Part shown: piece by piece, positions 5,542-40,000 of the stretch
Numbering within the stretch: position 1 is the stretch's first letter
Layout: every line of letters begins with the position of its first letter
Assembly: GCA_903884815.1 (NCBI GenBank)
Contig: CAISGE010000004.1
Coordinates: 5,136 to 69,135, forward strand
Length of the DNA: 64,000 nucleotides
Direction: 5' to 3'
DNA from: Candidatus Omnitrophota bacterium
GTDB lineage: Bacteria > Omnitrophota > Omnitrophia > Omnitrophales > Aquincolibacteriaceae
Made by a program: the position numbers and the translations under genes
The notes under the pieces: model-generated
What the model saw: the letters and a program-made list of their open reading frames with translations, nothing else
The model's database searches: none
What the model was told of the DNA's origin: nothing

Positions 5542-5542
5542 G

Positions 5543-6040: not shown

Positions 6041-6059
6041 AAGACTCAGTTAAACTCCA

Positions 6060-7185: not shown

Positions 7186-7294
7186 TTTAGTTTCCTCCGC
7201 ACATTCATTTACGGCAAAGCGCACGGAAAGATTTAGCAAAAACTAGCGGAAAGATGAAGAAAAAAGACGAGAAAAAATGCTACGGAGTAACGCT

Positions 7295-7339
7295 CGATGG
7301 CGGATGAAGAAAACTGTTCACTTCCTTCATCCGCCATCG
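7295..7339 (-). terminator. candidate intrinsic terminator after lepB
   Basis: Perfect 15-bp inverted repeat CGATGGCGGATGAAG / CTTCATCCGCCATCG with a 15-nt loop. On the minus-sense RNA a T-rich run (CATTTTTTCTCGTCTTTTTTCTTC) begins 16 nt after the stem. Confidence 0.35.
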
Positions 7340-7350
7340 AAGGTTCAGTT

Positions 7351-8007: not shown

Positions 8008-8068
8008 TTGATATTAAGGGTTAACAGTACCATCCCGCCTTCCCCTTAAATTGAACTGTCAGGCGGTA

Positions 8069-9853: not shown

Positions 9854-9855
9854 GA

Positions 9856-10506: not shown

Positions 10507-10515
10507 GCAGACACC

Positions 10516-11796: not shown

Positions 11797-11800
11797 GATT

Positions 11801-12223: not shown

Positions 12224-12228
12224 GCCGC

Positions 12229-19067: not shown

Positions 19068-20157
19068 CGTTCGGCCATCGCGACGCGCTTGCCGATCGAG
19101 GGATGATCGTAAAAAAACCATTCATACCACGCCGGGGGCTCCGGGTCCGCGAGATTCTGTTCACCGAGCTTTTTCATGCAAGTGATAAAAACATCCCGCG
19201 TCTCAAGGGCCCTCAGTGCGAAAAGATCCGCCGCCCGCTCACGCCTTCGCGAGTAACCGTTCATGAGCGGCGTCAGGATCAGATTCACGATATAAAAGAT
19301 AAGGAACAGGAGTGGCAAACCGGCAACATCGGACGCTGAAGCCAGCCCCACCTTCCCCGCCATGGCTCGAATCCCCCAAAAGCCCGCCGCGAACGCGACG
19401 AGCGAAGCCACAAGCCCGAACCCCAGCAGCCGCCAGACATCCTGGTGTTTGTAATGCCCCAATTCATGAGCCACCACCACCTCCACTTCCGGATGGGTGA
19501 AGTTCTGGATCAAGGTATCACTCAGAACGACACGCTTCGTCCGGCCAAGCCCCATAAACGCGGCATTCGCCTTCTTGGTCGTCTTGCTCAAATTAAGCGA
19601 ATAGACATTCCCGACCGGCATATCAAAGCGCGCGGCAAGAGCCAAAACCTTCGTCTCCAGGTCCTTGTCCTCAAGGCTACCATACTTGTAGAAAAGCGGA
19701 ACGATCAGAACCGGAAATACCTTGCCCAGAACATAGCTGACGAACGCGTAGGCCGCCCAGGCCCAAAGCCACCAATGGGACGGATCGGCGCGAATGATCC
19801 AATAAAGGCATTCCAGGAGAACGAGGGATAACCCGAATGAAAGAAGCGTCTTCTTCCCGAGATCCAAAAGCCACTGGCGGAAATTCTGATTCGAGAGACC
19901 GAACCGGTGCTCCAGCATGAAGCCGGAATAAAAAGAGAGCGGCAAGTCGAATATCAGAAAGAAAAGCGAGAACAGGACAAAATAGATCGCGACCACGCCC
20001 CAGTCGCCAGCACCCACGAGAGCAACGGCATTCTGCCGCATCCCGAACGTCCATCCGCTCGCGATCAATATTCCAAGCAGCGCCGGCGTCAGAACGAGCT
20101 GGAACAGGCTGAGCCTTCGATGGATGAGCTGGTATTCACGAGCTTTATTTTCCATAG
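19052..20157 (-). CDS. M48 family zinc metalloprotease (HtpX/Ste24-like), multi-TM
   Basis: VVAHELGHYKHQD HExxH in the context of several TM helices. The start is set at MENKAREY (ATG about 20155). The 407-aa track ORF has an N-extension. Confidence 0.85.
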
Positions 20158-20215
20158 ACGGCTCTTTCCATGTCACACCTATTTGAACAACCGAATGTAC
20201 GTAGCCGATCGTAAG

Positions 20216-20308
20216 TAATAGGTAGTATGTAGTAGGTAGAAAATCCGTCTTTCGTTTCCCGTTACAACCTACCATCTACTACCTATCACCTACCACATAC
20301 CACCTACC
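20216..20308. repeat. tacc/ggta-rich imperfect inverted repeat in the 285-bp region upstream of the M48 protease gene
   Basis: Left arm TAGGTAGTATGTAGTAGGTAG. The right arm CTACCATCTACTACCTATCACCTACCACATACCACCTACC is its imperfect complement. The mismatches become G-U pairs in the minus-sense RNA. Confidence 0.4.
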
Positions 20309-20442
20309 GTTTTTCGTCGAACTCCGTCATGACCCCAAAATGATCCGAGGGGAAAACACCCGCGGGAGACGGCTGATTAAAAACAACAGCGGACGACTTG
20401 ATCTTCTCAAGCGGCCCGGTCCGCTCCTTAATAAAAATGTAA

Positions 20443-21054
20443 TCAATCCGGCGCTCGGCCATTTTGTCCCGCTCTTTTTTCCGCGTACGGGTTCCGGTAA
20501 TCCCAGGTCAGGCCCAAATCGCCCGGATTCTTGACATAGAACGTATCGATCCACTTCCGGATCTCCCGCAAATACACCACCGGTGGCGTGCTCGCACCGC
20601 CGTTGAAGTCCCCCAAGACAACCGCGGGAAGATTGACGGATTTCTGATTCACGAACGCTTCAAGTTCCAGTGTCTGTTTCATGCGAAACTCGTTCTCGTC
20701 GGCCCGCCAGGAAAGATGCGTGTTGAAAAGCGCAACATCCTGAGTTCCCGTATCAACGCGGAGATAAAAGGCGTAACGAAGGTAATCCTCGGAAGGCGAC
20801 CGGGTCTTCATGACAAGACATTCCTGCTCGACTGGTTTGAACTTGGAAAGGAAAACAAGTCCGGAATGTTCCCCGCTCACAGCCAAATAGGGATACCCGC
20901 TGCGCTCCCGGGCCTCTTCCGCCCATTCCATGTTGAATACTTCCTGAAGTCCGACAATGTCCGCCTGATATTCCTTAAGGCCCCGGAAGATCAGCTCCCA
21001 CCGCTCGCGCCACGGCCCGCGCTCTTGCCAGGTATTTAACGTGAGTATCTTCAT
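20443..21054 (-). CDS. endonuclease/exonuclease/phosphatase (EEP) family protein
   Basis: MKILTLNTWQ..., ADIVGLQEV and a C-terminal GDFN, all EEP hallmarks. Confidence 0.75.
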   Translation of the reverse strand: MKILTLNTWQERGPWRERWELIFRGLKEYQADIVGLQEVFNMEWAEEARERSGYPYLAVSGEHSGLVFLSKFKPVEQECLVMKTRSPSEDYLRYAFYLRVDTGTQDVALFNTHLSWRADENEFRMKQTLELEAFVNQKSVNLPAVVLGDFNGGASTPPVVYLREIRKWIDTFYVKNPGDLGLTWDYRNPYAEKRAGQNGRAPD

Positions 21055-21126
21055 GCTCGGCTTGCCTCGCACAAAAAGTTAGGCGTCGTGAGTTCAGAGT
21101 TCGGTGAACTGCTTACGCGATTTTTT

Positions 21127-21948
21127 CTACTCATGGCTCTGAACTCCAGGCTCATGACTGCGGCTGTGGCGCAGCCGCTCCAGCCGCCCGATCATCTCAT
21201 GCCGGATCTTTTCTTTCGCTTCGTCCATGGAGGCATCCGCGAAATCATCGAGCGACACGGGTCTACCGATCGAAACGACGAACGTACTCCGCTTTCTGAT
21301 AAACCAGGACTTTTTGGGGAGTGCCTGCCCCGTCCCATCGATAACAATCGGAAGGATCTCCACTTTATTGTCCCGCGCCAATTTGAAGGCTCCCATCTTG
21401 TAGGCATGAATCTTCCCGTCCGGGCTGCGCGTCCCCTCGGGAAAAAGGAGCACACTGACATTTCGCTGAAGAACTAGTTTGATCCGCCTTGCCGCTTCGC
21501 GGCCGCTCTTATGGCTCGCCCGATCGACCGGCACATAACCCGCGGAAGCCATGGCCCAGCCCATAAAGGGGATCTGGAAGAGTTCCCGCTTGGCCAGGAA
21601 TTTAAAATTCAGCGGGAGCGCCGCGCAAACGGCCAGGATGTCCAGCATGCTCTGGTGGTTCGCGACGACGATATAGTGTTTCCCTTTCTGGAGATGCTCT
21701 TTCCCTGTCACTTCAAGCTTCCAGATGGAGCTCAAGGCAATGATCGTCCGGGACCAACGGATAGAGTTTTGGTGAACGATCCTCCGCGTCCCCGGGTCAA
21801 AGAGAAGGGATAAGGGGAAAAAGATCAGAAGGTCTGTGATCGCCGCAAGAAAAGTCAAGACGATTGTCACCCCCCAAAGAACACAGGAGTAAAAGAGGCT
21901 TTCCCAAAATCCGAATGGCTTTTCTCGGGCGGTTTTCATAAGCCGCAT
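21127..21948 (-). CDS. plsC: 1-acyl-sn-glycerol-3-phosphate acyltransferase
   Basis: VVANHQSMLDI (HxxxxD box) and FPEGTRS box. N-terminal TM. Confidence 0.85.
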   Translation of the reverse strand: MRLMKTAREKPFGFWESLFYSCVLWGVTIVLTFLAAITDLLIFFPLSLLFDPGTRRIVHQNSIRWSRTIIALSSIWKLEVTGKEHLQKGKHYIVVANHQSMLDILAVCAALPLNFKFLAKRELFQIPFMGWAMASAGYVPVDRASHKSGREAARRIKLVLQRNVSVLLFPEGTRSPDGKIHAYKMGAFKLARDNKVEILPIVIDGTGQALPKKSWFIRKRSTFVVSIGRPVSLDDFADASMDEAKEKIRHEMIGRLERLRHSRSHEPGVQSHE

Positions 21949-22044: not shown

Positions 22045-25000
22045 CTAGGCGGCCTGAAGTACCTGAAGGAACGCGTGGATCGCGTCCCCGATCTGGTTCA
22101 AACGGCTCTGCAAGCTTTCGTCGGTAGCGGTAATACGTTTTCCGGGCTCAAACCCCATTTCCATGATCGTCAATTCGCTGAGTTCTTTGCCGGGGACAAG
22201 CGCCTGAGACAAGCCCACGGCTCCCAATCGAGACGCCATACGAAGGTCAGCATTCGTCGCATCATAAGCCTCCTCCACCACGACGCCTTTGGCTGTATTC
22301 AAATTATCCGTCAGCTTTCGCATGATGGCGCGTGCGCCCAACAAGACATAACTGCCCCCGCTGGCATCCGTGTTTAATTTATCGTTCAGCTTTTGCGTGG
22401 TCGTCAGGAAGACGGAAAATCTCTTTTCAACATCCTTCCTGAGCATCCCGCGCTTTTCAGCCGCCGCGATAACCCTGTTCTTCAAAGCCCGAACCTGGGC
22501 CGGCGAGGGACCTTGTTTGCCAAGATCGGTGACCACCGGCAACTTGTAACGCATCTCCGGATTCGGGTTTAACATAAAGATCGCAACGATCGTTCCCACC
22601 CACGCATCCAGTTCCTTTTCGTCCGTAGGCAACGCGTCCACCAATTCAAAGACCCGACCGGCCCCCTGGCCCGCCAGGTGGCTGAAAGCCTTAGGATTGG
22701 ATCTTTTGAAAGCGCTCACGATATCAGGCGCCTCTTCCCCACCTGCGGCAGCAAGCAATGACTCCAGCTTTCGGGCGGCTTCTTCTGGCGAATCCTGACT
22801 CAACGCCATGATCCCGCCCACCAGGAACGCCACCAACACGATGGCCTCCGGCATCTTCGCGTCCACACTCAGAGCCGCACGGACCTCGCTCATTTTTTTC
22901 TTCCCCAACAGCGCCCGCAGCTCGGGCGGCAAGGCCTTCAAGATATTCGCTCCGGCATCCACGGTCTTAGTACCGCGAGCCTCAGGTTCTTTCTGATATT
23001 GCTCCGCAAAACCCGTCACCTTCAGGGCCGCCGCGATCGCCTTCACCGTAGGCCTCGCCTCCGACCGCATCTCCCCTTCTTTTGCCTCTGTCCGGACTGC
23101 GGGAGCCGTTGGGGATTGCCCCATGACCGGCAGCACGGCCGCCTCCACCGCCGCACCCCTCGCTTGGTCAAGAGCCGCTTCCATAGCATCAACCGCGTTA
23201 GCTACAGAAGACTCCTCCCTCGCCGCACGGAAGCTTCCAGCAACCAGGGCTTTGGCATCCGCGCTGGGATTCTGGGTCAATTCCTTGACCATTTTCGAAA
23301 CCGCCAGAGACGCAATGCCGAGTCCCACATTCGCGTATTCTTTTCCAGTTTCTGCCTTAAGAAACTCACAAACCGCCTGACCCGCCTCCAGGGTCATTTC
23401 AAACCTTTCCGGCTGTTCCAGCGCCTCTATGGCGAATGTGAGCGCCACAACATAAACACTATCAGGATCATAGATCCTTCTGGCGAAATCGTTAATGAAA
23501 CCGTTCAATCTCTCAAGCCTCTCCTTCCCCAACCCAAGAGCGTCCGCATTGCCGCTACGCAGATACCGCTCAATGGCGTTTTCCCCTCCTGGGATATGAG
23601 CAGTCAGGGCTGAAAGAAAGCGCCTTTCACGAGGGTGAGTTTGCGTCCCATCCTGCGCTTTCCATTCAGCATACTCGGCAGATTTGAGAGGATCCGTCTT
23701 TTCGATCTTTTCACCTATTTCGGCCGTTTTTTGGATAGCCTCCCCGCTGACCCTGGCCTCCTCCACGACAAGAGAAAGAGACCGCTGGTTCTCCGGAATT
23801 TCCGACGTCCTCGCGGAACGATAATCTTTGTGGGTCAATTCGTGGATCACCGTTTCCAGATCCTCGAACTGATGGAACTTCGTCCGGACCAGGATCACAC
23901 TCTTGCCTCCCCCAAGATCGATATGCGAGCCTTCATGCGTCGCATCCGAATACAGGGAGTGAGATAGTTCTGAATCATCCGCGACAAAAATAATCTCGTC
24001 GGCATCCACCGAAATACCGGCATCAGCCAGCAGAGCAAATATTTTCTTGGAATGTTCCTGAACAAGGCTCCCCCAACGCCCGTTTTTTACGATATCGCGT
24101 ATCACTTCACGAACGGAAGCCGCGTTATTTTCCGACAAACCTTTCATCACCATTCCGGCACTCCCTTGAGTAGAACGCTCATCCTCCAGGGCCTGTTCAT
24201 AACTGCGGACCGCCCCTTCCAAACGTGCCAAGGCGGCCCCGGGTAGCGCAGCCTCAGCCTCCTGCCCAGAGTTCGACCCAACGATATCCCTGAGGACACT
24301 CAACAAACCCTCTGTCGCCCTCGATGAATCGGCCTCTCGCCGGCTTAGATTCGTCGCAAAGATCTTCCAAAAAACTTCTCTGTCGATATTCTCTCTCTCC
24401 GGCAGAGCCGCGTTTCTTTCCAATAGCTCCGAAACAGAAGGCCGCTCCAAACGCGCCCGGATCGCTCCCATATCCGGCGAATACAGGGCCACCGATCCCG
24501 GCGACATATGCAAAACCGAATCCTCCCAAGCGTTCGTGACAACCGCCTCGCTTGGCCGCTCTCCCGTTAATATTGCTAGCGCGGCGGCCGACTGCGATTG
24601 AATAGGAGTAGAATCCTTCTTCGCCCCCGCTTTTTGCTGATTCACCCAACGGATCAAAAGTGCAACATGAGACAGGCCCATCTTTAAGCTGCGGATGTAA
24701 TTGCTGATGATCCTGATACACTCATCCCGGTGATTTACAAAAAAATCGAGCGCTTCCTTTTGAGAAAGAGACAAGTCTCTCCATTGAGAAGATTTCTCAT
24801 GAAGTACGGCATCGATCGCTTTTCCAATATTGAGGTCCCGCGCATTCCATTCCTCGAGGTCGGTCGCGACATTGAGCTTGGCAGGGTCCACATCCCGGAG
24901 CCTAAACGCCATATCCAGAAGAAAGCGATCCGCCATGGCTGAGATCATTGTCTTTGTGAAGGTAGACAATCTCACTTCAGAACGATCCGACACGCTGCTG

Positions 25001-28000
25001 GACCGCACCTCCGCCACCGGCTTCGCTCCCGCCCGCAGATCGCCGCGGGTACTCACTGGCGAAATAACCGGCATTGTGGACGTCTGTCCGACTACCCCAG
25101 CCAGCAACTCCCGCGTCTCGGAGCGGTCGGGCTCGTTGGGAATCCCGAGAAATGTTGCGCTTTCATCAAACGCAGACTGAACCTGATCAAATGGAATTTT
25201 TAGAAAGCCGGCCAGCTTCTCCATTTTTTCGGCATCGAATCCGGGCCGGAGGGACATCAGCCGGATCAATTCCCACTTCGAACTTGGGGTAAGAAATTCA
25301 AGAGGAATGGCTTTGCATTTTTCCTTTTCAAAGATCAGATCGCGAGATGCCACACCATACCGCCGGAAGCCGCGCTCGCTCGTTTGCTTCTCCGGGTCGA
25401 TTTTGACGCTTTCAAAATCCTTGATATACAGCTTTGCCGTTTCCATATCTGGAAAATTAAAGATCAGCAGGCCTTCTTCCTGCCAGGAAAGCGCTTCCTC
25501 GATCGCAATCGTAACCATCCCGCGGCTCATTTCTCCGGTTGCCGCCAGATCCCCCAGCGGATCACGATCGTATTTTTTCACGCCATGAAACCAGATCCTT
25601 TTAAGTCTCGCGTCGCTGAACTCATATCCCGTCTTCACTCGGCTGATATCGCCATTTTTGAGCCCCGCTTCCAATTCGCTCGGCAAAAGAGGGACACCAT
25701 CAACATTCACCAATGCAGCTCCGTCTTTCATCTTCAGGTCGGGATAAGTTCTCGTCTCGGAACGGATTTGATCGGTGGTTTCAAGCGTGCGGCGTTCTTG
25801 CCGCTTACCCTCGGCGGGTTGGACGGGCGCCTCATGACCTGCGCCCTCTGGCGTAACACCAGACTTTTCCACGAACTTCTTCGTCTCAGCCTTGATCGTT
25901 TCTGTCATCACTTTCGCCACATCCGCACCTCTCCCGATAAAATTTGGCGACAAGGCCGCATCCACGAGCGTCGGAACGACATCCTTCTCGGCGAAAGCTT
26001 TAAATACCCTCTCCACCTCTGCTTTCAACCCCGCCGCATTAAACGGATCTTTTCCGTCTTTGTTCTTCATGGAAAAACCGTCCATATCGAAATCAAGGAT
26101 CAAGGGTTTTCCAGGATCGGCTTGCGGCAATTCTTTCAAGTACACAATGTGAACTTTGATCGGCCTGAGGTGGCTCAGCGTATATTTCTCTAAGATTCCT
26201 GGATAGCGCTTCCCCGGATCCTCCTCCGGATGCATATAGACCTGCTTATCGCTGGGATCGGTTTTTGACGTAAGAAGCCCAACATAATAGGTACCCCCTT
26301 TCAACACAGCGGGAGCAGCTCCGGGATACTCCGGAAGGATCCAATATATCTCGCTGATCATATGCTGAAGTACCGCAGGAGCGATAAACCCCTCGATGCT
26401 AAAGCTTGGCTTGGACATATCCGGCTTATCCGGATCCTTCACATTTTCAAGGTCCCCCAGATCAAAGTGAGAGTCCCAGTGATAAAGCACCGCTTCGTGA
26501 ATCCCAGCTGCCGCCCATGCAAGGTAAGCGCTATTATGATTCTGCATCATATACACGGGAGCTTTCCCCATATACCCCGTCAGGTGGATACCATCTTTTT
26601 CATGTTTTGTGACGCTGGGAACATAATCTGGCTCGAGTTGTTGGCCATGCAGTGAAATGGAGGCCGCTAACGATAATCCCGCAAGCCCCGCTCGCCGGAG
26701 CAACGCTTTCCGCACCTCGGAGCGATCGGTAGCCGCGGTGGAGTTATTTGACCGGGACTCGGAACGGCCTCCGGGCGCAACAAAATCGTGAAAATATCTA
26801 TCTTTCGGCTCGTTAAAAAAGAATCCCGATCGGGCGGCAAACAGATAGTGACGTTTTACAAAATCCTTGAGCGCCGCGGAAGCATTATCATCTCCTTGTA
26901 TTTCCCCGAAGAATTCCTCGCCGTTGTCTTCTTCATGGACCCTCATGACAACATCCATGAACTCATCGGCGGAAAGGCTCCAATTTTTCTCGTTTATAGG
27001 TTTTAGCTCAGAATTTTGCGGCAGCCTCGCTGTTGACCTGCTCGGCCCGCTCCCCAACATCTGTCCTCCGGCAACAAAGGGTGTTCTACGAGGTATGCCA
27101 TCGAGCTGTCCCCCTCCTACAGGAGTAAACGACTCCATGATCTCCCAGGCCGCCCGCGCCACGGGAAGATCGCCGTTATCGGCAAGCCGGAGCACCAATT
27201 CGTTATCCACAACCCGCATCACGACATTACTCCTCCGTGGATTTCCGTACATCCTGCCGGTCCCTTTAAACGAGCTGATCATGAAGGCAATAGCACGCGC
27301 ATCTAGATATTTCAGTAGTCCGGATAATTCTTCCCTCAAGCGGGATCGCTGGTCCAACATTCCATCATCGATCTGAGGGCCGCCATTGAGAGACAAGAGT
27401 CCCATCGCCCTCAGACCATCCATGTGCTCCATCAACGCATCCTCGGATAAAGCCTCAATGTCCGTTCCATCCCACTTTGACCGGGTTAATTCTTCGAGGA
27501 TCTTCACAGGCTCATCCATAGGGATATCGCGCTCAAGCATCTTCACGGCGGGCCTCTCCTTTTTAGCAGGAACCGGCGGTAACACAACCGGCTGCTCCGA
27601 TGTTCCCACGAGAGGTCCTGGCTGATCGATCCCGGCATGAGACGCAAATGATTCCGACAATGCTTGGGCTCGATCTGCGGGTTGCAGGGATAATTCGTCG
27701 AGAAAATCCACTAAGTGGAATCCCAATGGGGGATGCCCTGCGTTATCCGCCATATAGCTGTCTCTATAACGCACGGCATATTGATTCATGAGGTTTTCAT
27801 GATGCTGCCCCGTAAAAAACAAGGCCAACTCACTTTTGATCCTGTCCGGCGATTTCAATATCCCGTAATCCACAAGAGCCATAATAAAATCAAACCGCTC
27901 CTGCGGGGACATCGAAAGCCCCCTATAACCCGGAAACCATCCTTCCATATATTCCCGCATGTCTTCATTCTGGGTGAGAGTCCCCGTCGTGACGCCGTCG

Positions 28001-31000
28001 CCCGCCGAAGCCTTGTTCAGCGCAACAAGGCTTCGCGCCAGAACACCCCGTTGCTGCATGAGGCCGTCTGACGCCCTGCAGCTTTTATCAACTTCCAGTA
28101 AGAGCGCGATCCTGGAGGGCAGTCCTTGCGTCTTATCTTCCCTCATGAGTAGATCGACCACAGCCTGAAAGATCTCGGGATCCGAAGCACCTTCTTTGAG
28201 AAATTGCGTAAGACGCTCATCGCGCAGCGGATTCCCTTCGCGCTGAGTTTCAACCCAAAACCTGAGTTTGCGTATACCCTCCCGCCGCACATCCGCCTCT
28301 GCCGATCGCAGCTCATGAAGAATATTCCCCATAAGATCAAATCCCAACGGATTTTTCTGTTGAGGGATGGGCGGAAACATATCCTCCCGTGACTGGCCGG
28401 GGTTGGCGGCATCCATGACCTTACGGACCTTCTCCGCATGCGCCGAGTTCCCCCGATCATCATTAAATCTCTTATTCGTATCATTAAACAAAGCCTCATC
28501 CGCACGGATCAATGCCAACGCCTGATTCGCCACATAAGAAGCTCTTGCAAGACCCTTCCGAACTTCCTCGCTTGGATGAGCGCCATATTGGTCCGCGCTG
28601 AGCTTCATAAAACGTTCGATATGTTTTTTAATTTCAAGCAAGGAGTGAAAGTTCTTAAGGTCCGGATCATAATAATCGTGAAGGGCTCGAAGCGCCCCGA
28701 TCTCACCTTTCAGATAATAATTAAAAACGCGGTGAACGAGCTCTTCGAGCTTTTCGAGCGGCATGGCGGCGGGAGAATCGTAGAGGATATGATGTTCCCG
28801 CGCAAAGTTCGCGAACGCCCGCTGATTATTAAGGTCTTCCCCGTCAAGGTCGTACCAGCCACCGCGGGGGGCTTTATACGTTTCGAAGCCATCGTCCTTA
28901 GCATCCGCACCAGCCGCCTTTATCTTCGGAGCAAAATCCATCGGCATCACACCTTTATCAAGAAGTGTGGCTGCCACCGCGTCGCTCACGGTTTGAGTCG
29001 GATCCTCCGAAAGCCTCCGCACCTCGATCCCGCTCGATGCGGGAAGAGCGGCCTCCGGCAGGAAAGTTTCGTTACCGAGGATCACGGATCCGGGAGGAAG
29101 CTTCAATGAACCGATGATTACCGTATCCATCGGATCGATCACGGCCAATTGGTCTAAAACAGCCGCTAGAGGAATCAAAACGACATATTTCGCACGGTAA
29201 AAAGGTGAGCGCTCGGGAAGAAGGGAACTTGTCACTGTTGAATTAAGACTGAAATGCAACGTCTCCCAGGCATGTGGCTGCAGAAAGTCCCCGTTGGGAG
29301 TCAGGACCTCTTCGGAAAAGAAACTTCTGGGATGGATAAATCCATCTTCTTCCGGATTTGCATCCGTCATGTGTACGAGATAGATCTGGGCGATATTCAG
29401 GGTTTCTCCGTCCCTTGAAATAGGAAACCCCTTTTCTTTCAGACTCGCCTTGGCGCGCTTCCACTTTTCCATAACAGCGCGAGACCACCCATGACTGAAC
29501 CGATTAGCGCCCTTGGACCGTGTCGAAGGCGCGCGTGCGGGCTTGGATGGGGCGGGCTTTGCGACAAAAGAGGAAGATGCCTCCGCAGGCATGCCCTTCC
29601 TGCGCCCATTCGTCACCAGTTTTTTCAGCTCTTCATAATCAGGTGATTTGAAATTCATCTGCTCGTCGAACGCGTGCTCCCGCAGCCCGGCGTAACTCCC
29701 CGCGTCAACCCTGTAGAACTCGGTCAGGATTTGAAAGAACTGCGCGATCGGAAGCTGCGCTTCCCTGGCAGCGGTCCTGACCTCCACAAAAGCATCCTCC
29801 AAGGCTTGGGCAATTTCAGCATCATCCCCCCGGATTCTGGCAGAATACGTCCGTTCAAGCATCCTTCCCAGAGGATCAAATGCGATGAGTGCGTTAGCAA
29901 GTTTCCGTTCTTCGGGAGTAAATTCAAAGAGATCATAGAGCTTGTTGTCTTGGATCAGCTGGAGCGACCTTTTATGCTGGAGGCTCTTATCTCCATCATC
30001 CTCCACCGCCGTCGGCTTCCCGACGTCGTGAATAGCAATCAATAAGCGGTAAAATCGCGGTGAAAAGTTATTGGGGAAGAACTCTTTTCGTTGCTCGAAT
30101 TCGTGAAGCACCTGGGCATCATGCTTTCGCAAACTCAGTTTCTGCACGACTCCTACGCTTCTCGGAAATTCATTTCGCAGCACCGGAACGCTTCGTGCCA
30201 AATATTCAAGAAATCGATCAATGCTGTCGCCATCCATCTTTGCCGAATTCGCCAAGTTCAAAGCATCTCTGACCCGCGTCTCAGAACGGCCGGCACCCGG
30301 CTCGGCGGGGCGAACTTCTGCGGCATTGGGCGGATTCAAGGATGGCCCCCGGCCCACCAAAAGCTCTCCGATCTTTAACAGTCCTGCAAAAAAGGCCGAC
30401 TTCAAGAATCTATTCACTTTTGCGCGGGCTGTGGTCAATCTCCCGGGCTGATCCCACTTGAAGATCAACTTTGCCGCGTCAAAAAGGAAGAAGATCGCAA
30501 CAGCAGTCATCCCACCCAAAAGGAAGAACGCGCCAGCATATTTGAGGGCCAGCGCAAAGCCCGCAAGGGTCCGCTCCTCCTTGGTAACGCCGCCCTTGAT
30601 CACCTGCTCAAACCAGGGCGTCTGCCAGGGTAACTCCAGCACATCCCAGAGCAACAAATAAGCGATGATCGCGACTTGACCGAGAGGCGAGGTCTCGACA
30701 GGGGCCTGACGCAGGACAGACGCGATAAGCTTCGCCACGTAAGGAAACGTGCTCAGATAAACGACCAGGTATTCAACCGCATAAAGAAATCCGGGATGCT
30801 TTAAAATCTCTCGAGCCCTCATCGACGCGATGTATCTCACTACCTGGATCATAATCAGTCCGGGAAGAAGTACTCTTTGAAATTGCTTCCAAAGGTTCGC
30901 CGGTGAAACCCATCGTGAACCAGACCGACTCAAACCAGCCTCCGCCGGCGTGGCGGAAGTTTCAGCTCCCTCTGTTTCGGGAGAGGAGGCGACCGAAGCC

Positions 31001-34000
31001 GATTTTTTGGGCGAATACTTTGCGGCAATCTTTATTGCAAGCTCCCCGATCTCACCAAGCGGTTTTTCATATAAGGGACCGGCCAATCTTGCCTGAGCCA
31101 AGGCCCACTGCTCCATTTTGGCAACTTCTTTCCGACTCGGATTTCTGTCTGCTCCAAGTTCGGAAAACTTTTTGATCGGCGGTAAGATCCGCTCAAGAAT
31201 ATCGCCGGCCAGGATCATTTGTCCGAGATCCAAGGACTCATGGCTCTCCATATACAGCCTCGCCACGAAATCCGCGGGATAAGAGGTGGCATACCTTTCT
31301 AAAAGCCATTTCCCGAAATCTTCCCCTTCAGAGTAGGTGCTGTAATGGGCCCCTCTCTCACGGTTAAAGTTTGCGTTAAAAGTTCCGTCGATAAGATCAA
31401 GATCTCCCGTCCAAGATTCCCCTCCCCCGGTTCCATAGAGAAAAGGCCTCCAAGACGCATGCAATTCCTTCGGAGTTTTCACAACGCTCTGCCCCGCGAC
31501 TTTTCCGGTCGGGGTGCCAGTCGCAAGCGTTTTAAATAACGCAGCCCCCAGGAACCTTCTGTCCCGAAAGGGTCCTTCTGTCGAACTCGCGCCGATCTGC
31601 AGGTCACTCAACAAATGCGTGTACTCATGCCAAAAGACAGAAGCCCATGAATCAAAAGTCATCCCGTCCGTTTGGGACTGTATTTTCACTTCAAAACCCT
31701 CTGGACCTGGGAATTCAAACCCGTTCGGATGACGGATGAACACCCTTGCAAATGTCGTGGTAAGATCATCCGTCTGAAAAAGGATCGAAGTCGACCGCTT
31801 GAGGATTGTCGATGCCTCTGCGTTGTCCTTGCCGTCAATACCCGCCGCCTCGAGGTATTTCTTAATAAGGTAATCTGTCATGGCGGCCCAATAGCGCATG
31901 AGCAAAGGAAAATCCGCCGGAATATCCATTCCCCGTTCTCGTTTCAATTCCCTGAAACGCTTTTCCTCGCTCACGTAATGCGGGTATTTCGAAGCCTCGG
32001 CTTTCAATATCGGTAATGCCTCGTGATAGGGAATCCCCTTCTCCATCAACTGCCGTATTGTTTCGTTTATTCCGGCCATAAATCTTGCGTCTTCTAGAGA
32101 TAATCCGGTCGACCCCTTCTCGATTTCCATGGCGACATTTAACTCTCCCGCGCCCTTCAGCGGAGTCACCACCACACGCTCGATAATAGCCCTCACGGAC
32201 CAGAGCTGATCGGATTCCACCATCCAGCGATAAACCCGGTTTGACTTCATTGCTGAAAAGCACAGCACCCCTGCCAACGCGGGGGGAACGAGTATTCGGA
32301 CGAGCGGGGACCGCCGTAATCTTCGCCAAATATTTCGCCGCTGCTCCGCACGCGACTCTGAGGAGCGTGCAGGTTGGGCAACGTCAGTCGGGGTGCGGGT
32401 TTCGGAGCGGACATTTGGAATATTAATTTTCGCCGCATCAGCACCGCTCAGGTCCTCCACAGACAGCCAATCAGCCGATTTGATGGAACGGACCATTTTG
32501 AGCAATTCCAGAGAAGTCATGCCCGAAAAATTGAAGAGTTGCCCGCAGGAAGCCAGCAAATTAAAAACATCCATCACGTCATCTTTAACAGGAATACCCG
32601 CACGCTCCAGCTCGGCGATCACACCCAAAAATTTTCCGATCATCGACTTACCAGACGCAAGAACATTGCTAATCTTCACCTCGACATCCGGGTTCATCGA
32701 TGCCTGGCCTACAAGGAGAGCTCTAAGTTCTTTAACAGCCATTTTCCGGGCAATTCCCTTGCCAACCGGCAATTTCTGACCGATCAATAAGGCCTGCATC
32801 AGTGCCCACAGACTCTTACGGCTATCGATGCTAAGAGTCGACGCAGCGCCGAGATCGATAATGGAGATGCGGATCTTTCCCTCGGCCGTGCGAGACACAA
32901 AGATATTTCCCCTGTGCGGATCCGCATGATAAAACCCGCAAATAAACATCATCCGGAAGAACAAATGTCCAAGAATATGTTCAACCGCAACGGGATCAAT
33001 TCCCAGAGCGGCAACACCCGCGTCGTCGGTAAGTGGCACTCCCGGCGCTGTCCTTTCCCTCATGACTGAATTTTGGGCTATTTCGTGAGCGATCGGCACG
33101 TCAAATTCATAGCCCCGGAAAGCGTTCTCCGCGCCCGCCTGCACAACGCGGATCGCTTTGGCGAGTCTTTTTTGATTCTCACCCTCCAGATCAAAATCCA
33201 TCTCCTTCCGGATCCGGTCCTCCACTCGGTCCAGCATCTGCTTCGGGACATTGATCTTCAACTTGTCCCCCAGCATTGCCGCCACGCGCCGCATAAATGC
33301 AATCTCCTCCTCTATGCGCTGTTCCCCGTCCGGGCGTTTGATCTTCACGATTTCTCTGCTTCCGTCCTGAGTGAGCGCCTCGTCTACTGCCTTAACCGAC
33401 GCGTTCCTTTTTTTATTATGCAGCTCCTGAAAGACATCCGTAAAACTGCCGAAGACCCTGTCGGTCATTTCAAACTTATCCTCGATCGGCATTGGATTCG
33501 CGCCATCCTTTAATCTCTCGAGGCGCGCCCGGATCTCGGGCGTGATGTCCTTGTCATCGATAAGAGGGGAAGAGGAAAGAATCTGCCCGAGCTTGACCAT
33601 GGTGATCCCGAACGATTCGAAGACAAGCCCAACGACTTCAGCCTCTCTCTCTTCCCGGGAAAGTCCTGGATCAGCAATGCGTGACAGTCCCGCGCAAAGA
33701 GATAAAAGCACCTGCTCTTTTCTGTAAGGGTCGCCTGCCTCTATAAGAATATCGTATATCCCCTTATAGAGGTCCCGGCGTTCCTTTTCAGTGCCGGCTT
33801 CCCCCTTGGGGTAGGCGTAGTTGAAGATAGCGTCGAAAAGATCCGCCGCTGCGTGATTGGGATATTCCCGCACGTAGGGAAGTCCGTGCTTCGTGGACAT
33901 ATCACGTCGCGTCACCTTCGCGGTTTCAGCCAAGACGCCGTTCTTACCGTACAACAGTAGATCCAGCATGTCTTGCCGCAGGCTGGTTCCGATGCCTTTA

Positions 34001-37000
34001 TAGTGGCCTTCTTCTCCTCCACGGAAGAGTTCGCGTAGAAAATCGTAATTAACCTCAAAATCATGCTCAATCCTCAAGAGAAAGGCGGGCTTATTTTCCG
34101 TGACGCCCACCAACCACAAGATAAGATCTTTTTTAGATTCCGGAGCAAGCTCGGAAACGACCTGGAGCAGTATCTTTTCTTTGCCAAAAAGATTATCCCG
34201 AACCCCTTCTTTCCTGGTATTCCCTCGGAATTGAAGAAGATAAGACTGCACAATCTCCAGCATGCGGGGCGTTACAACCCTTTCATTCTGGATCGAGCGA
34301 AGCACATCGTCCCGAGTGTAGCTGAATTCCTTAAAATAGTTTTCGACGACGATCCTGACCTCCTCTGAAAAATCGCTAAAAAGATCCGGACGCATTTCAC
34401 GGTCAACTTCCAGTGCCAGGAGAGCCGATCGCTCGCGAACGCTAGAACTCTTGAAGTCGTTATCCAGCATCGCCCTCATATGAGTGATGAGACTGTCTTG
34501 TTGCTCGCGGGTCAATTTGTTCGCACGCATCGCGTCACGGATACCCCGGAACAGCTGTTCCATGAAGTAGTCTTTCGGTTCCGAGTTTTCGGCAAAAAAG
34601 GAACGGACCAAATCCCTCCGAGACTGCATGACCTCAACAATATCCTTAACCTCTGTCTCCGGCACTTCCGCCGACAAGTGAGAAGCAAGTATGTCCCGGA
34701 GGAGCATCGGAACTGCATACACGATCTGGGTGGCATGCCCGCCCGTATTCGTGAACTCAGCGGGAGTGTAGCGTTCCGTCACGCTGGAAGGAGCGAACTG
34801 ACCTGCATTATTTATATTGATCGCGCAATTTTCACTCTTGGAAATCCGAATGCGTTCATTGGCCTCCTCCATGGCAACGTCAAGCTGAAGCGACGGCATG
34901 ATAAGCGCCGCGGAACGGAGAATGGCTTGTTGCTGCCCCGCTGGAAGCGCACCTATTTTCTGGCGCACCCCCGCGATGTCAAAATAGTCGGCCATCGTGT
35001 CGTCCACGACCACTCCGTTTTTCCTGAGAACCATCTCCACAAACACAAGATAAAGAGCCATGTTCTTCATCATGCCGTCCGGAAGAACGGCGTTCAGCTC
35101 CGCCACCACCTCTTCGAAAGTGCGCCCAGCGGCTGAAATCGGAAGGCCATAATCGAGCAGGCGATTGAATATCTGACTCGGCAGTAAATTCTGCACAGTG
35201 CCGGGAGAAACATTTCTGATCAAATCTGAAGGAAGATACAGAAGCCACCTGTTTTGCCAATCGTGAGTTGAAAACGGGCCCAGATATGCCTGATCCGAAA
35301 TCTCAACATCAGGAGTATCCGAAAAGAATAGCCGGTCCACCCGGTATGGAACCTCCCCGATACGCCGGGACCGTCCGTGAGTATCAAATATTCCGTTGTC
35401 TCTGTATTTCCCTAGACGAAGGGCCAAAGCAATTCTCACCATGAATCCGTTCCATGTCCTTATGCGCCCGATAGCGCTTGGCTTCCAATCACCGGGCAAA
35501 TTTCTAATCATCCTGGAAAATGTCCCCCGCTTCGTCTGGACATCCCTCTGCGACAAAAGGTAGTTGTACAAAGCGGTCCGCTCGACAAGCGAAAACGGAA
35601 CATTGTGAACCGGGTCTGTTTTCTTAAATGAGCCGGAAGCCGCGGGATCTCCGTCGTCGATCAGTTTTATCTTCTTGAAATACTCGATGATCCCCTCATA
35701 GTCATTCGCGCCGAAGACGCCGCCCATTTCGTAGAAGAAGATAATTTTTCTGATCGGTAAGGCCAACTCTCCGGCATTTTCCACACCCGCGGCGGCTAGA
35801 GCGGAATCTATCCGATCGGATAATAATTCCTCGCTCAGACCATTCTCGCCAAGGATCATTTCATAGAGACGGCTATTCATGAGCAAAAGGTCCTCCTGTT
35901 GGAGGCTTCTCGCGTAGAGCCCCCTATCAAAGGCCCGGACGTCATAATTCCTGTCTGGATCCTGTTCATCTTCAAGCTTCCAACGCTCATTCAAGTCAGC
36001 GGCGTGGGTTGTAAGGGCATAGCGTAAAAGGTCTATTTCGCCCTCCGGCCCAAGGTGGTAATATTCCATGATCGTAGAAATGTAATCCCCGTATTTACCT
36101 TTAAACATCTCGAGAGCAAGCTGAACCGCTTCCACGGCGGTCGGCGCATTGATCGCCTTGAGCCACCTCAGCACAAATTCTCTATTTTCAATGACGGGGT
36201 TCGCCCCCCCATTAAAGCAAGTAGCATGAATAGGCAGATTTCTTTGTTCTTCCGCGCTTAACAGGCCCGTGGCAAGAAGAGCTAATAGATCCTCAACGGA
36301 GTCAATGGGGTGATCGGTTAAAAGCCTCAGGAACTGTTTACGGTCAGCATCGTTCAGCGTTGCGCCAGCGCTAAGCTTCTTTACCATGGCGCTCTCAACC
36401 AATCTCAAAATATCCCTGAATAAGAGCTCCCCGCCCAGAGGCTTCGCCTCATACTGGGCACGAACCTCAAGTTCCCGTTTTCTCTGATCGATCCGTCTGT
36501 AAAGATCCATCAACTGTTCGGGAGTGAGACTGTCCTGATTGCGTGCCAGATATTCCCGGACAACTGATTCGATGAATCTTATGTGGGAATCAAAAATCAC
36601 ACTTTTCAATTCCAGAAAACTCTTCTCCATATCCTCCCGTCCATGATCCTGGGCGGTCTTCTGCCGCGCAGCTCTGGACAAAGAAGGAACAGATTGGCTT
36701 TCAAAATTCAATATGTCCGGAGGCTGCGCTTCTAGCAGCCCGAGCAATGATTCGCCATTGACAGCACTCCCGGACTTTGTCAAAAATTCAGTGATTCTCG
36801 AAGCGAACTCTTCTGCGGAGGAATTCGAAGATAAAAATTTATCGACGGCATCTTCCAAGACGAATTTGCGTTGAACCTCATACGCAGAAACTTCATCGGG
36901 TGATAGCTTGGAACATAAAGTGCTCGCGCGACTTTTGTAGACGGCTTCGCTATCATCCACCCCGTTTTTCCTCTTCAGAATGTAGGCGAGAGCATAGAGT

Positions 37001-40000
37001 GTTTGAAGTTCTTCCATGGTTTCGGCACTGCTCATCAAATCGAGAATCATTTTGAGCGATGCCTTATCCCCGTAGTTGACAAAGCTCCCAGTTATGCGCT
37101 TCGACACAGCTTCCTCTTTAAGACCGCTTTCGCGCGTTCTCCTCCGTGATTGACCACCTAACTCCTTGGTAGCCAGCGTCGAAATATCACCTCGGGTGTC
37201 ATTAAAATGACGCCAATATCTCTTTTTCTGATTCTCCATATTCTTGAGGCGTCTCTCCACCGTATTGTGTTCCCCAAGCCACGAGTCTTTAAGATTATTC
37301 GCTTTCATATATTCCCGGATACACCTCATCGCCATGATCGCGCCCTGCATTGAATAACCAGCCGATTCCATAAAATCCAGCGCGTTATTGTCCGCATCCT
37401 CTTCGTCTGTAAACCGTACGGCACGACGCTTGAGGATCGAATTCAGCGGAGGATTCACCCCCAACCGTTGCTCTTCCTCATAGTCCGCCCAGCCCTGTTT
37501 GATATGCCCGGTCTCATGCGAAAGGATATAGGCAATCATCGCCCGCGACCCTGCAAGTTTTTGATCAGGCGGCAACTGAGCAACATAAGCTTCGATCAGC
37601 TTCAAAAACCCAAGCGAAATATAAACGCGATGATCACCGGGATAAACAAACGCGTCGGGTTCATTCTTGTCCATGAGATGAAGTTCAAATTGATCCGGAA
37701 CAAGTCCCACTTTTTGAGACCCGAGGATGTCCCTGAAAACAGTCTCGACTTCATTATAAATCCCTGAAAACTCTCCCGAATTTCTTCCGATCAACCCATC
37801 TTTCGCTAAAATCGCGCGCATTGCCGCGTTATTTTCTCCCTCGATCGCCGCGTCGATTGGAATCCGCCCTTTAACAGGCAAGGTCCGTGTCTCAGCACGG
37901 CCATTCAAATAATTCTCAATCGCTAGATCAAAATCAGCAGGTTCGGCTTCCAGAAAACGCACGACATTCCGGACAAAATCCCTTTTGATTTTATCCGTTG
38001 CATCCATTCCTCTCAAATGCTGAAAAACAGGCTTAGAACTCTCCCCAAGAACACCGCCCAGAAATCCCAGTAATTCCGCAGCATCTTTAAAGAACCTCCG
38101 TACGAGTTGCAGCTGCCCCAAAACCGTTGTGAAAGCTGAAATCAAGACTTCGTTAGAGTCGGTCGGCAGGTCGAACGCTTTAACCGGATCGATAAACACA
38201 AGATCAGGTGTGGCCCCTTTGGCCACCTCTTCTGGATTCCGAAGTAATACATCGTCGATGCCGTAATCATAAACGACGCCTACCGGAAATCCGGACTGGA
38301 ATTCAAACTGAACCTGAGACCATAACAGGTGAGCATCCGAAAGCAACTGTTCAAAGATCCTCTTCCGGATCCCGGGATCCTTATTCGATTTAATGAACGA
38401 TTCTAGAGTGACGCCGCTCTCCCATTCTGAAAGCTGCATATAAACTAGATCGGTGTCTACAAAATGCACTTGGGAATCGACCGATATCTCGCGGGCAACT
38501 TTGCGGGCAACTCTCGGATTGGAGACGATCTTCAGGTTCAATGCCTTATCCCGCTTAGCGGACTGCAAATTCAAATGACGCTCATCAGAAAATTTTATCG
38601 CAAGATCCCGGGATACCCCGCCGGCTTGAAAGGTCATACGATGAACGTGTCGACCGGAGCCTGAAAGAACGCCTGCGTGAACTGATATATGGATCACCTC
38701 GTTCACAGGAATACCCACATCGGCCAAATAATGATTTAATTCGGATTCATGCTCATGAAGGAAAGGAAATAGCCTTTGTTCGAACAGCTGATGACCATCC
38801 TGAAATCCAGCTTGATTTCCGGCCGCGCTCCACTCAAAAATCAATCCACCTTTCGTCAGCTTCTCACCCTTCTGCCCTGACGCGAGATCTTTGGTACTTA
38901 CAGGCTCCGTAGTAGCAATGGGCTCTTCAGTCGGCCGGACTTTGGAGCGTGGTTTTTGGCGGCCTTCGGAGCGGGCGAGTGAGACGGTGACGGAATATTT
39001 GGATCCGTCTCCGATGGGCGTGAAATGAACGGCATAGAACTTTCCGTTCTTCGTGAAGGCATCGCTTGTCATAACATACCCGTTCTCACCTTCGGGTTCG
39101 ACATTCAACGGGTGTTCGAATTCCTTGGCGACAAAATCGTTATAGAATTTTATCGTTGCTTCAAGATTTTTGGGATCGCCTCCTAGTAGCTTTAAAAACC
39201 AGCTCTCGAGATGTCTTTCCAGCGCCTCGATATCGACCCCTTGATCAGACAAGACTCCTGACCGCTGCAGCACGCTTGGTAATTCCAGGGTCGCGAGGTC
39301 GAACAAGCTGGACTGCGTCTGGAGCATATTCTGCCGGTACATCTTGTCGTTGCTTTTCTCGGTAAGACGCGGGGTGAGAATACCGTAACTGGTCTGATGT
39401 TCCCGGAGGAGGTCCGTGATCCCGTCCGTGTGAAAACCGCCGGTGACGAGAATGGCTTTGGACACCGCTCCCTTGGTCATGACGTCGTTGATCTTTTCGT
39501 AAAACACATTTTCACGTTTATGCGCGGCTTCGTAAAAACTGTAGGCCGCCGCTTGGGCGCCTGTCACTTCCGAGCGGAATTTGTCATTCACTTTCTTGGT
39601 CTCGAAATTCGAAAGCGGCAGCCCGTACTCTTTGCTGAGCGCCGTGCCGATCACTTTAAGTCGCGCCACCATCGCGTCCATGGACAGTGAGTCTGCATTT
39701 TCCGTCATTCTGAAGCCTGCGGCCGAAGAATCTCCGCCAAGATCCTTCGCTTCGTTCAGGGTGGCAGGGGTTTTGACTAATCCTCGTTTCTGCTCCACCT
39801 CCTGCCATTCCTTGCGCGGAAGCTCGAGGTTGAGGAGCTTGCGAATGAGCTCTTCATCACGGAACAGCTGCACGAGTTCCTTCTGCCGCGGCGACACAGC
39901 CTGGGTGTCGAGAATGCGCGTGAAAACGGCCTTGATCTCCTCAAATAGGCCTTTCGGATCAAGTTCGTTTTTTAAGATGAGATAACCGGCATAAGTGCTG

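Follow-up and report, generated by a model that had tools for sequence, protein, structure and literature searches.

A complete UbiB/ABC1 module in a family of very large, signal-peptide-bearing proteins, mostly from Candidatus Omnitrophota

UbiB/ABC1 proteins are ancient, widespread and mechanistically poorly understood, and to our knowledge all members studied so far have about 400 to 750 residues and serve the quinone or lipid metabolism of the organism itself. What, then, would such a domain do within a protein of 6,349 amino acids (aa) that begins with an apparent Sec-type signal peptide? This question is raised by a giant open reading frame (ORF) in a 64,000-nucleotide stretch of DNA from a Candidatus Omnitrophota bacterium (assembly GCA_903884815.1, contig CAISGE010000004.1, positions 5,136 to 69,135 of the forward strand), the whole of which is hereafter called the window. 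A first-pass annotation of the window had placed an ABC1/UbiB-type atypical kinase domain at 32600-33450, inside what it called an exported megaprotein, and had suggested a lipid or small-molecule kinase activity used on a target outside the producer. We found that the module encoded at positions 32425-33657 truly belongs to the UbiB/ABC1 family and has all of its catalytic residues intact, and that it serves as the C-terminal signature of a hitherto undescribed family whose members are very large proteins, found mostly in Candidatus Omnitrophota. The explanation that we regard as the best for the protein as a whole, with a probability of roughly 0.4, is that an exported core carries a UbiB-type ATPase acting on a hydrophobic ligand and is joined to its C-terminal extension through linkers with the motif RSExR.

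The UbiB/ABC1 module and its catalytic residues

The giant ORF, the module and the motifs of the module are located as follows (window coordinates, strand, feature, basis).

22045-41094, minus strand: giant ORF of 6,349 aa with an ATG start, stop codon counted in (ORF translation)
32425-33657, minus strand: complete UbiB/ABC1 protein-kinase-like module, aa ~2480-2890 (Pfam, TIGR01982, AlphaFold2, Foldseek)
32779-33516, minus strand: Pfam PF03109 match, aa 2527-2772 (E = 2.7e-30)
33583-33594, minus strand: KxGQ motif, K2501-L-G-Q2504 (invariant among 41 aligned UbiBs)
33331-33402, minus strand: N-lobe stretch ASVKAVDEALTQDGSREIVKIKRP, aa 2565-2588 (translation)
33343-33345, minus strand: K2584, the β3 ATP-binding Lys (VKIKRP), presumably the counterpart of COQ8A K358 (alignments)
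33175-33204, minus strand: EMDFDLEGEN, with the ExD motif (E2631, D2633), the αC Glu E2637 and N2640 (alignments)
32896-32934, minus strand: catalytic-loop peptide FYHADPHRGNIFV, aa 2721-2733 (translation)
32905-32928, minus strand: catalytic loop H2723-A-D2725-P-H-R-G-N2730 (alignments)
32839-32862, minus strand: IIDLGAAS, aa 2745-2752 (translation)
32848-32856, minus strand: DLG, the DFG equivalent, with the Mg-binding D2747 (alignments)

The match to PF03109 (ABC1) scored 105.7 bits against a cutoff of 22.9 bits and covered profile positions 1-235 of 244. A sequence search of the Protein Data Bank (PDB) returned only UbiB-family matches, namely Rv3197/MABP-1 (E = 4.8e-10), MSMEG_1954 (E = 4.3e-8) and COQ8A (E of about 1e-5 to 1e-6). 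The structure of aa 2470-2900 was modeled with AlphaFold2 from a 41-sequence alignment at a mean pLDDT of 88.8 and a pTM of 0.88, and when this model was compared with the PDB by Foldseek, the top 12 chains all belonged to the UbiB family (E = 3.5e-12 to 2.5e-9). COQ8A (5i35/4ped) was the best of them, with E = 3.5e-12 and TM-scores of 0.61/0.68, followed by MSMEG_1954 and Rv3197; ordinary protein kinases in the same list reached only about 1e-4 with a TM-score of about 0.25. The family assignment made in the first-pass annotation was thus confirmed by profile, sequence and structure comparisons, and the catalytic-loop, IIDLGAAS and N-lobe peptides that it had quoted all occur in the minus-strand translation of 22045-41094, with K2584, D2725 and D2747 in place. 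Its interval of 32600-33450 (aa ~2549-2832) proved too short: the kinase-like core is covered, but the N-terminal KxGQ helices and the last C-lobe helices are cut off. Besides the motifs that it had named, VKLGQILS (containing KxGQ, aa 2500-2507) and EMDFDLEGEN (aa 2631-2640) also lie in the module.

The alignment of 41 diverse UbiBs, including bacterial, archaeal and plant ABC1 proteins, was invariant at K2501, G2503, Q2504, S2566, K2584, E2631 and E2637 and, on the C-lobe side, at H2723, A2724, D2725, H2727, N2730 and D2747. Among 58 modules of the large-protein family described below, the key catalytic residues were conserved at 98 to 100% despite an overall identity of about 25-30%: Q2504, K2584, D2725, N2730 and the Asp of DLG were kept in all 58, and K2501, E2637 and the Gly of DLG in 57 each. 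E2631 was found in 54 of the 58, N2640 in 50 and D2633 in 36, with Asn at the last position in another 16. This degree of catalytic conservation at such low identity rules out a decayed domain and is the signature of purifying selection on catalysis. By motif correspondence, we take the counterparts of these residues in COQ8A to be K276/Q279, K358, E405, E411, D488, N493 and D507. K2584 aligns with the VAMKIQYP and VAVKIQYP segments of solved structures, and EMDFDLEGEN aligns with ELDYRLEAANQ of Rv3197; the Rv3197 alignment is in register, whereas around ExD a phmmer alignment to COQ8A is off by four residues.

The module departs from ordinary UbiBs, to which it is about 20-27% identical, in several respects. 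Its scores with two equivalog models, TIGR01982 (124.5 bits against a cutoff of 487.55) and PRK04750 (77.1 against 667), are so far below the cutoffs that it must be regarded as a family member and not as a UbiB orthologue. PF27536, which accompanies PF03109 in most ordinary UbiB matches, was not detected in the giant protein by Pfam. The Ala-rich loop reads ASVKAVD, against a canonical ASI[AG]QVH and a family consensus of SASIKVVY; A2565 and S2566 are kept in 53 and 56 of the 58 family modules, respectively, and the Q-V that follows the A-S of the loop and is at least 90% conserved in ordinary UbiBs is K-A here. Furthermore, DLG takes the place of DFG, and an insertion follows the ExD region.

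The family of large proteins and its conserved core

An exhaustive HMMER search with aa 1780-2900 as the query recovered 48 clusters at a cutoff of E ≤ 1e-30, almost all of them proteins of 1,200-6,700 aa in which the module lies far from the N-terminus. The named sources were mostly Candidatus Omnitrophota, together with one Elusimicrobia protein. Some members already carry automatic labels in GenBank: MCR4337325.1 (3,269 aa) and MDD5436029.1 (4,347 aa), both from Candidatus Omnitrophota, are listed at NCBI as "AarF/UbiB family protein," and the Omnitrophota protein MGB2661677.1 (5,599 aa) is listed as RfaY. These three are 28-33% identical to the giant protein over the solenoid described below and the ABC1 module. 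In a word-indexed search, close relatives of the module numbered only three (45%, 33% and 29% identity), and all other matches were ordinary UbiBs of about 550 aa at about 27%. A genome scan added a 3,582-aa protein from a metagenome-assembled genome (MAG) labeled Planctomycetia (L003) and a split pair of 1,229 and 1,357 aa from an Omnitrophota MAG (L004).

Conserved blocks were mapped by BLASTP of the giant protein against 73 large relatives. The region of aa 1-600 is common to 16-23 of them, aa 1100-1350 (an M48-like segment with an HExxH motif) to about 40, and aa 2000-2870 (a solenoid and the ABC1 module) to 34-70, and beyond aa 2900 essentially nothing is conserved, with a single relative matching aa ~3600-3800. 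Judging from these alignments, the family core is, in order, a cleavable-looking signal peptide, an N-domain of about 570 aa, the M48-like HExxH segment, an alpha-solenoid of about 480 aa and the UbiB module. L003 and L004 show this architecture as well.

41017-41094, minus strand: Sec-type signal peptide, aa 1-26, composed of MTKTTQK, IISLVTLACFVM and TQSISA, with NP following the predicted cut (hydropathy peak at aa 8-26)
39292-40965, minus strand: conserved N-terminal domain, aa 44-601, fold without a match (BLASTP to the 3,582-aa L003 protein and other relatives)
37492-37752, minus strand: M48-like metalloprotease segment, aa 1115-1201, with HExxH (SHETGH, aa 1193-1197) (PF01435)
33685-35127, minus strand: all-alpha solenoid, aa ~1990-2470 (AlphaFold2 model and conservation)
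32395-32409, minus strand: RSETR, aa 2896-2900, where the conserved core ends; the first of the eight RSExR copies (BLASTP block boundary)

The N-domain gave no match in Pfam or the PDB; an early impression that it resembles a TraB/Tiki-like protease found no support in any search, and we do not claim it. The match of the M48-like segment to PF01435 (E = 2e-6 to 2e-7) covers only about the first 79 of 186 profile positions. The solenoid always accompanies the ABC1 module in this family, and a model of aa 1980-2900 (pLDDT 80.7, pTM 0.77) places a helical solenoid of about 480 residues packed before the UbiB fold, so that a unit of about 920 residues is modeled with confidence. In a Foldseek search with this 921-residue model, the solenoid had no significant counterpart in the PDB and only the UbiB part was matched; matches to VPS34/PI3K, at a TM-score of 0.11, were meaningless and were not interpreted.

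Several relatives differ in how the core is arranged. In L004, the core is split over two adjoining ORFs, one at 4332-8021 (1,229 aa, with the signal peptide and the M48-like segment) and one at 8042-12115 (1,357 aa, with ABC1), which is explained either by a true fission of the gene or by a frameshift in sequencing. The fused form is represented by a 2,624-aa protein (P0129), whose N-terminus is nearly identical to that of the L004 pair. P0001 (at L001 127-2532), to which the module is most closely related, is called as a stand-alone protein of 801 aa that has no signal peptide and is followed by an Xre-type helix-turn-helix gene; it may be part of a longer ORF, as its start adjoins a gene fragment of 41 aa at the edge of the contig. 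A 3,436-aa protein (P0096; L083, ENA ERZ4903072 contig k141_3839159, 10001-20311) clusters with the Elusimicrobia protein and lies in a prophage- or mobile-element-like region with Amidase_2, HNH, Vsr, DNA methylase, SMODS plus ThiF and integrase genes, whereas the other relatives are found in housekeeping contexts. When viral contigs were scanned with the ABC1 alignment, no close relatives appeared and the six matches returned were weak and of a generic ABC1 kind; a general link of the family to phages was therefore dropped.

In the literature, we found no paper on ABC1/UbiB proteins in Omnitrophota or on a secreted UbiB. The architecture is thus new for a known domain family, with members that are already labeled automatically in GenBank and yet undescribed in the literature that we found.

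Export, the C-terminal extension and possible function

The signal peptide was judged by eye, by Kyte-Doolittle hydropathy and by its conservation in relatives. The N-terminus, MTKTTQKIISLVTLACFVMTQSISA followed by NPG, is built like a Sec signal with n-, h- and c-regions: the n-region is basic, the hydrophobic core spans 12 residues, and ISA precedes NP. Of 70 large relatives, 37 have an equivalent N-terminus with an AxA-like site, and nearly all relatives of at least 3,000 aa are among them; the cleavage-like sites include AYA/AP, AWA/V, FA/QV and SSA/NP (the slash marks the putative cut). A lipoprotein reading of Cys16 was rejected, as relatives lack this Cys and the closest N-terminus (P0246) keeps the SSA/NP context. 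Within the giant protein, no helix with a Kyte-Doolittle value of at least 1.5 lies between aa 27 and 2930, and a weak hydropathy peak at aa 2012-2030 corresponds to a solenoid helix that AlphaFold2 modeled with confidence. Moreover, P0097 (3,269 aa), P0099 (3,582 aa), P0113 (5,772 aa) and a relative of 3,893 aa have no hydrophobic helix besides the signal peptide. Cys is depleted 4-fold, with 13 in 6,349 residues (0.20%) against 0.80% in the 22 other proteins of the window, and its median in the large relatives is 0.25%. The window also encodes LepB, a signal peptidase I, which we counted toward export.

Past the core, the protein continues into an extension of 3,450 residues that is joined to it (aa 1-2896) through RSExR-containing linkers. 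The extension holds a cluster of four to five transmembrane (TM) helices at aa 3405-3581 and a TM helix at aa 6081-6099, and the whole protein has about 7-9 hydrophobic helices.

22048-32394, minus strand: lineage-specific C-terminal extension, aa 2901-6349 (no covering relative)
32248-32304, minus strand: hydrophobic TM helix with an Arg-rich N-flank, aa 2931-2949 (Kyte-Doolittle 1.89)
32395-32409, 30274-30288, 26752-26766, 26710-26724, 25750-25764, 25111-25125, 24970-24984 and 23053-23067, minus strand: the eight RSExR copies, aa 2896, 3603, 4777, 4791, 5111, 5324, 5371 and 6010
37504-37518, 31615-31629, 23923-23937 and 23830-23844, minus strand: HExxH motifs, aa 1193, 3156, 5720 and 5751 (only the first in a recognizable, M48-like segment)
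30016-30030, minus strand: HD-like motif IAIHDVGKP, aa 3689 (motif scan)
26062-26562, minus strand: UPF0489/FlmR-OhkR peptide-arginase-like segment, aa ~4845-5011 (weak: Pfam E of about 3e-6; PDB 8brp, E = 0.0024)

For RSE[TVSA]R, which has eight copies, the number expected from shuffling is 0.03, none of 2,000 shuffles gave more than 2, and no copy was found elsewhere in the six-frame translation of the window. Looser, RSExR-like copies occur at aa 708, 1066, 2911 and 3591. Every copy lies within a Pro/Ser/Ala/Gly-rich linker between modules, and the codons vary among copies (CGC, CGT, CGG and AGA for Arg; TCC, TCT and TCG for Ser; GAA and GAG for Glu), which indicates selection on the peptide and not on a DNA repeat. 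In three relatives that are about 25% identical (P0117, P0126 and P0153), RSE[ML]R stands at the same place, 159-221 aa past the HxDxHxGN loop; they have three copies (one at residue 9), four and two, respectively. Another relative (P0130) has a single RSEMR, located elsewhere. A literature search found no paper on RSExR peptides. We regard the motif as a possible site of processing or a short linear motif, in either case no more than a candidate. The HExxH motif is likewise enriched, with four in the giant protein against 0.15 expected from composition.

Searches with the extension gave little. No homologues of aa 4770-5330 were found, nor any relatives of aa 4700-5400 in a scan of JGI metagenomes, and a lenient Pfam scan (E ≤ 10, eight sub-segments) yielded only the ABC1, M48-like and UPF0489 matches. 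PDB sequence searches with the N-domain and three C-terminal stretches returned only the weak peptide-arginase match, and the segment concerned scored 28 bits with the NCBIfam model against a cutoff of 350. Ahead of this arginase-like segment lie a hydrophobic, signal-like stretch (aa 4797-4815) and an RSEVR motif, and the protein in which this putatively arginine-acting fold is found is rich in conserved Arg-containing motifs.

How might these parts work together? In the explanation that we favor, the precursor would be exported by Sec and its signal peptide removed. The core would then lie outside the producer's cytoplasm, tethered by the TM helix at aa 2931-2949 unless processing at RSETR 2896 frees it. 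Going by its conserved residues, the UbiB module would bind ATP and Mg, and going by its family, it would act as an ATPase and not as a protein kinase. By analogy, its ligand would be engaged at a membrane surface and be hydrophobic, probably an isoprenoid or a phospholipid, and the solenoid and the M48-like segment would serve as partner modules. If exported, the protein would work only where ATP can be reached, i.e., at or in another cell, which we speculate may be a host or prey cell. Such a site of action would fit the host-dependent or predatory lifestyle that has been proposed for small Omnitrophota (10.1101/2023.11.21.568195). The analogy is with studied UbiB proteins: E. coli UbiB, Coq8 and COQ8A are ATPases stimulated by analogues of Q intermediates and by phospholipids, and none of them has been shown to act as a protein kinase in trans (PMC7263595). 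Besides, UbiB proteins influence the cellular distribution of CoQ (PMC8346625) and phospholipid homeostasis (PMC10214851). A lipid-handling ATPase is, by the same comparison, more likely than the kinase activity proposed in the first-pass annotation. A bolder version, which we consider unlikely, is that the core is a secreted effector of ultrasmall, host-dependent Omnitrophota, freed from a polyprotein at RSExR and delivered to a host or prey cell, where its UbiB module would draw on the ATP of the attacked cell to pull out or displace membrane lipids, be they isoprenoid quinones or others. If this version were true, a UbiB-family enzyme would for the first time be seen to serve as a weapon, and a processing site would for the first time be defined in Omnitrophota giant proteins.

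Export of the core appears somewhat more probable than its retention, but a number of findings weigh against it and favor a serious rival, in which the N-terminal segment is an anchor or is not fully translocated and the TM helix at aa 2931-2949 holds the UbiB module inside. The module would then have an ordinary UbiB role on the cell's own membrane lipids or quinones, and the giant protein would be a scaffold that collects enzymes at the inner membrane; we hold this to be a real possibility, though one short of even odds. The periplasm contains no ATP, and yet the ATP-binding and catalytic residues are strictly kept, as would be expected where ATP is available, i.e., in the cytoplasm. The TM helix begins 35 aa past the module with 6 Arg on the ABC1 side against 3 Lys/Arg on the other, which by the positive-inside rule makes the ABC1 side cytoplasmic; the basic (Lys/Arg) flank of the last TM helix (aa 6081-6099) is also on the N-side, and both agree with an inside location for the ABC1 part and the HD-like part. 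In having a TM helix behind its kinase-like domain, the protein resembles a canonical UbiB; hydrophobic segments are present at the C-terminal end of the aligned UbiBs. Modules of a cytoplasmic type, such as Response_reg, are found in relatives and an HD-like motif in the giant protein, and some relatives lack a signal peptide (perhaps through truncated gene calls). The chromosomal context is of a housekeeping kind, neighborhoods are not conserved, and no secretion genes adjoin the ORF. The Cys argument is soft because canonical UbiBs are also Cys-poor (0.36% against 0.24%), and RSExR follows the module in only 4 of 67 family members, so that it is a trait of a sub-lineage and processing there is not general to the family. 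West-Roberts et al. considered that the predicted extracellular sites of many giant-protein domains "seem highly unlikely" (10.1101/2023.11.21.568195). On the other side, the signal peptide is conserved with an N-in orientation and AxA-like sites across relatives that are only about 25-30% identical, many of these have no TM helix after it, and the 4-fold Cys depletion and the low equivalog scores do not suit an ordinary UbiB of the inner membrane. The TM helix after the module is itself not conserved in the family; six relatives that have one show a charge bias opposite to that of the giant protein, and with the bias thus mixed, the positive-inside analysis cannot settle the topology. The description of the protein as exported is therefore supported by the conserved signal peptide, the TM-free relatives and the Cys depletion, at the level of sequence, and is opposed by the need for ATP and by the charge bias at aa 2931-2949.

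The remaining explanations concern the activity of the module and the reality of the gene. A true protein kinase, acting for instance on the Ser of the RSExR linkers or on proteins of a target cell, would suit the invariant Ser beside an Arg in that motif, and AtABC1K6 is reported to be a Mn2+-dependent protein kinase (PMC8956952). We nevertheless judge it highly improbable. All family members keep the catalytic residues, whereas RSExR is limited to a small subset of them, and the studied UbiBs noted above have shown no such activity in trans. Also, KxGQ is fully conserved, and this element is said, in work by Stefely et al. of 2015, to occlude the peptide-substrate cleft in COQ8A. The variant Ala-rich loop, the DLG in place of DFG and the insertion after the ExD region would be consistent with a non-catalytic remnant whose fold is kept as a structural or ligand-binding module; this is very unlikely given that K2501, Q2504, K2584, E2637, D2725, N2730 and D2747 are kept in 57 or 58 of the 58 family modules. 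Finally, the split core of L004 and the stand-alone P0001 might suggest that the giant ORF is an artefact, i.e., a chimeric assembly or separate genes fused by a frameshift. The ORF is, however, one open frame of 19,050 nt without interruption, and its identical 6,349-aa product was recorded from 15 contigs in four repositories (NCBI, JGI, Logan and ENA; the longest contig has 184,866 bp), which shows that it is not an assembly artefact. An independent gene call in ENA ERZ27313089 also gives one gene with the same UvrD adjoining, a fused form of the L004 type exists (P0129), and dozens of relatives, 3,000-6,700 aa in length, show this domain order too. An artefact is thus scarcely conceivable.

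The rest of the window is ordinary chromosome, with the dcw cluster, LepA, LepB, glycine cleavage genes, UvrD and tryptophan synthase.

7351-8007: signal peptidase I (LepB) gene (homology annotation of window ORFs)
8069-9853: LepA gene
17874-21948, minus strand, directly downstream of the giant ORF: PlsC-type acyltransferase, endonuclease/exonuclease/phosphatase-family protein, Ste24-like M48 protease and Peptidase_MA_2/TPR protein
870-2900, minus strand: 676-aa fusion of a patatin-like phospholipase with a cyclic-nucleotide-binding domain
11801-12589 and 12229-13017, minus strand: RuvX call (longest ORF) and TrpA ORF, overlapping by about 360 nt

The Omnitrophota origin of the window is borne out by LepA, which is 92% identical to LepA proteins listed at NCBI under Candidatus Omnitrophota and has dozens of further matches in that phylum. 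LepA has many relatives at 92-94% identity, whereas the nearest relative of the ABC1 module (P0001) is at about 45-47%, which suggests that the giant gene either evolves very fast or is confined to this species. The Ste24-like protease is full-length with a five-helix N-domain, and the downstream set as a whole has a lipid and protease flavor; its order is not kept beside the relatives, and no conserved gene neighborhood was found around family members. The RuvX domain begins only at residue 124, so that the true start is probably downstream and the overlap with TrpA is an artefact of the mechanical ORF list. Scans for promoters and terminators at both ends of the giant ORF gave nothing above chance, PADLOC defence models matched no part of the giant protein, and BLASTP of the protein against itself showed no internal repeats. 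The annotated ORFs of the window, which covers only part of the genome, included no ubi or men genes.

Comparison with known systems

The domain itself is ordinary and already annotated automatically in GenBank, and the role of the giant protein rests on inference. What gives the locus its significance is an intact UbiB module that forms the conserved end-piece of signal-peptide-bearing proteins of 1,200-6,700 residues, in a phylum of tiny cells, host dependence and giant genes. This points to an extracytoplasmic, possibly intercellular use of the UbiB fold, or else to an unrecognized membrane machine.

With UbiB, Coq8, COQ8A (ADCK3) and the plant ABC1K proteins (PF03109), the module shares the fold, KxGQ, the Ala/Ser loop in a variant form, the β3 Lys, ExD, the αC Glu, HxDxHxGN and DxG, but here it lies inside a 6,349-aa protein with a signal peptide, after a dedicated solenoid and an M48-like segment. 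UbiB proper has about 550 aa, PF27536 and C-terminal TM helices, whereas in the giant protein PF27536 was not detected and a single, non-conserved TM helix follows the module. Among solved structures, Rv3197 (MABP-1; 5yjz) and MSMEG_1954 (7cy2/7cyr) are the best sequence matches and have the same fold. Their PDB entries are described as ATP-, ADP- and erythromycin-bound, and bacterial ABC1 proteins thus need not act on quinones. These two, however, are stand-alone proteins of about 440 aa, and the giant protein scores only 37 bits with NF050082 against a cutoff of 800.

Exported enzymes that need a cytoplasmic cofactor and become active only inside a target cell are known, such as MARTX toxins, anthrax edema factor and CyaA, and MARTX toxins release their effector modules by proteolysis. 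They offer a functional analogy to an exported ATPase, with no homology: no repeats, cysteine protease domain or translocation domain were detected in the giant protein, and no secretion-system genes adjoin it. A precedent for an outward-facing UbiB domain is yeast Cqd1, whose UbiB domain faces the intermembrane space and whose function depends on an ATP-binding residue (PMC10214851). In Cqd1, the domain lies on the outer face of the inner membrane behind an N-terminal targeting signal and one TM helix, and the protein takes part in phospholipid and CoQ homeostasis (PMC10214851, PMC8346625). Cqd1 differs in its size of about 76 kDa and in its surroundings, as the intermembrane space contains ATP and the bacterial periplasm does not.

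Within the phylum, the automatically labeled Omnitrophota entries (MCR4337325.1, MDD5436029.1 and MGB2661677.1) belong to the same family and have signal peptides and M48-like segments, but they lack RSExR motifs and the C-terminal extension. The Omnitrophota giant proteins described by West-Roberts et al. in 2023 (10.1101/2023.11.21.568195), in which ABC1/UbiB is not mentioned, have at least 30,000 aa, many TM helices and SecA-DEAD (Archaeovorins) or dockerin domains (dockerin-type). The protein studied here, with its 6,349 aa and about 7-9 hydrophobic helices, is far from that size, and no SecA or dockerin was matched in it by Pfam, even at lenient thresholds. The two nevertheless have the phylum in common, as well as a very large multi-domain ORF, an N-terminal signal peptide, protease-like domains and enzyme domains that are normally cytoplasmic. 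The earlier proteins also evolve fast and are suspected of being cleaved after translation, with "information about cleavage points" lacking (10.1101/2023.11.21.568195). The RSExR motif is a concrete candidate for such cleavage points.

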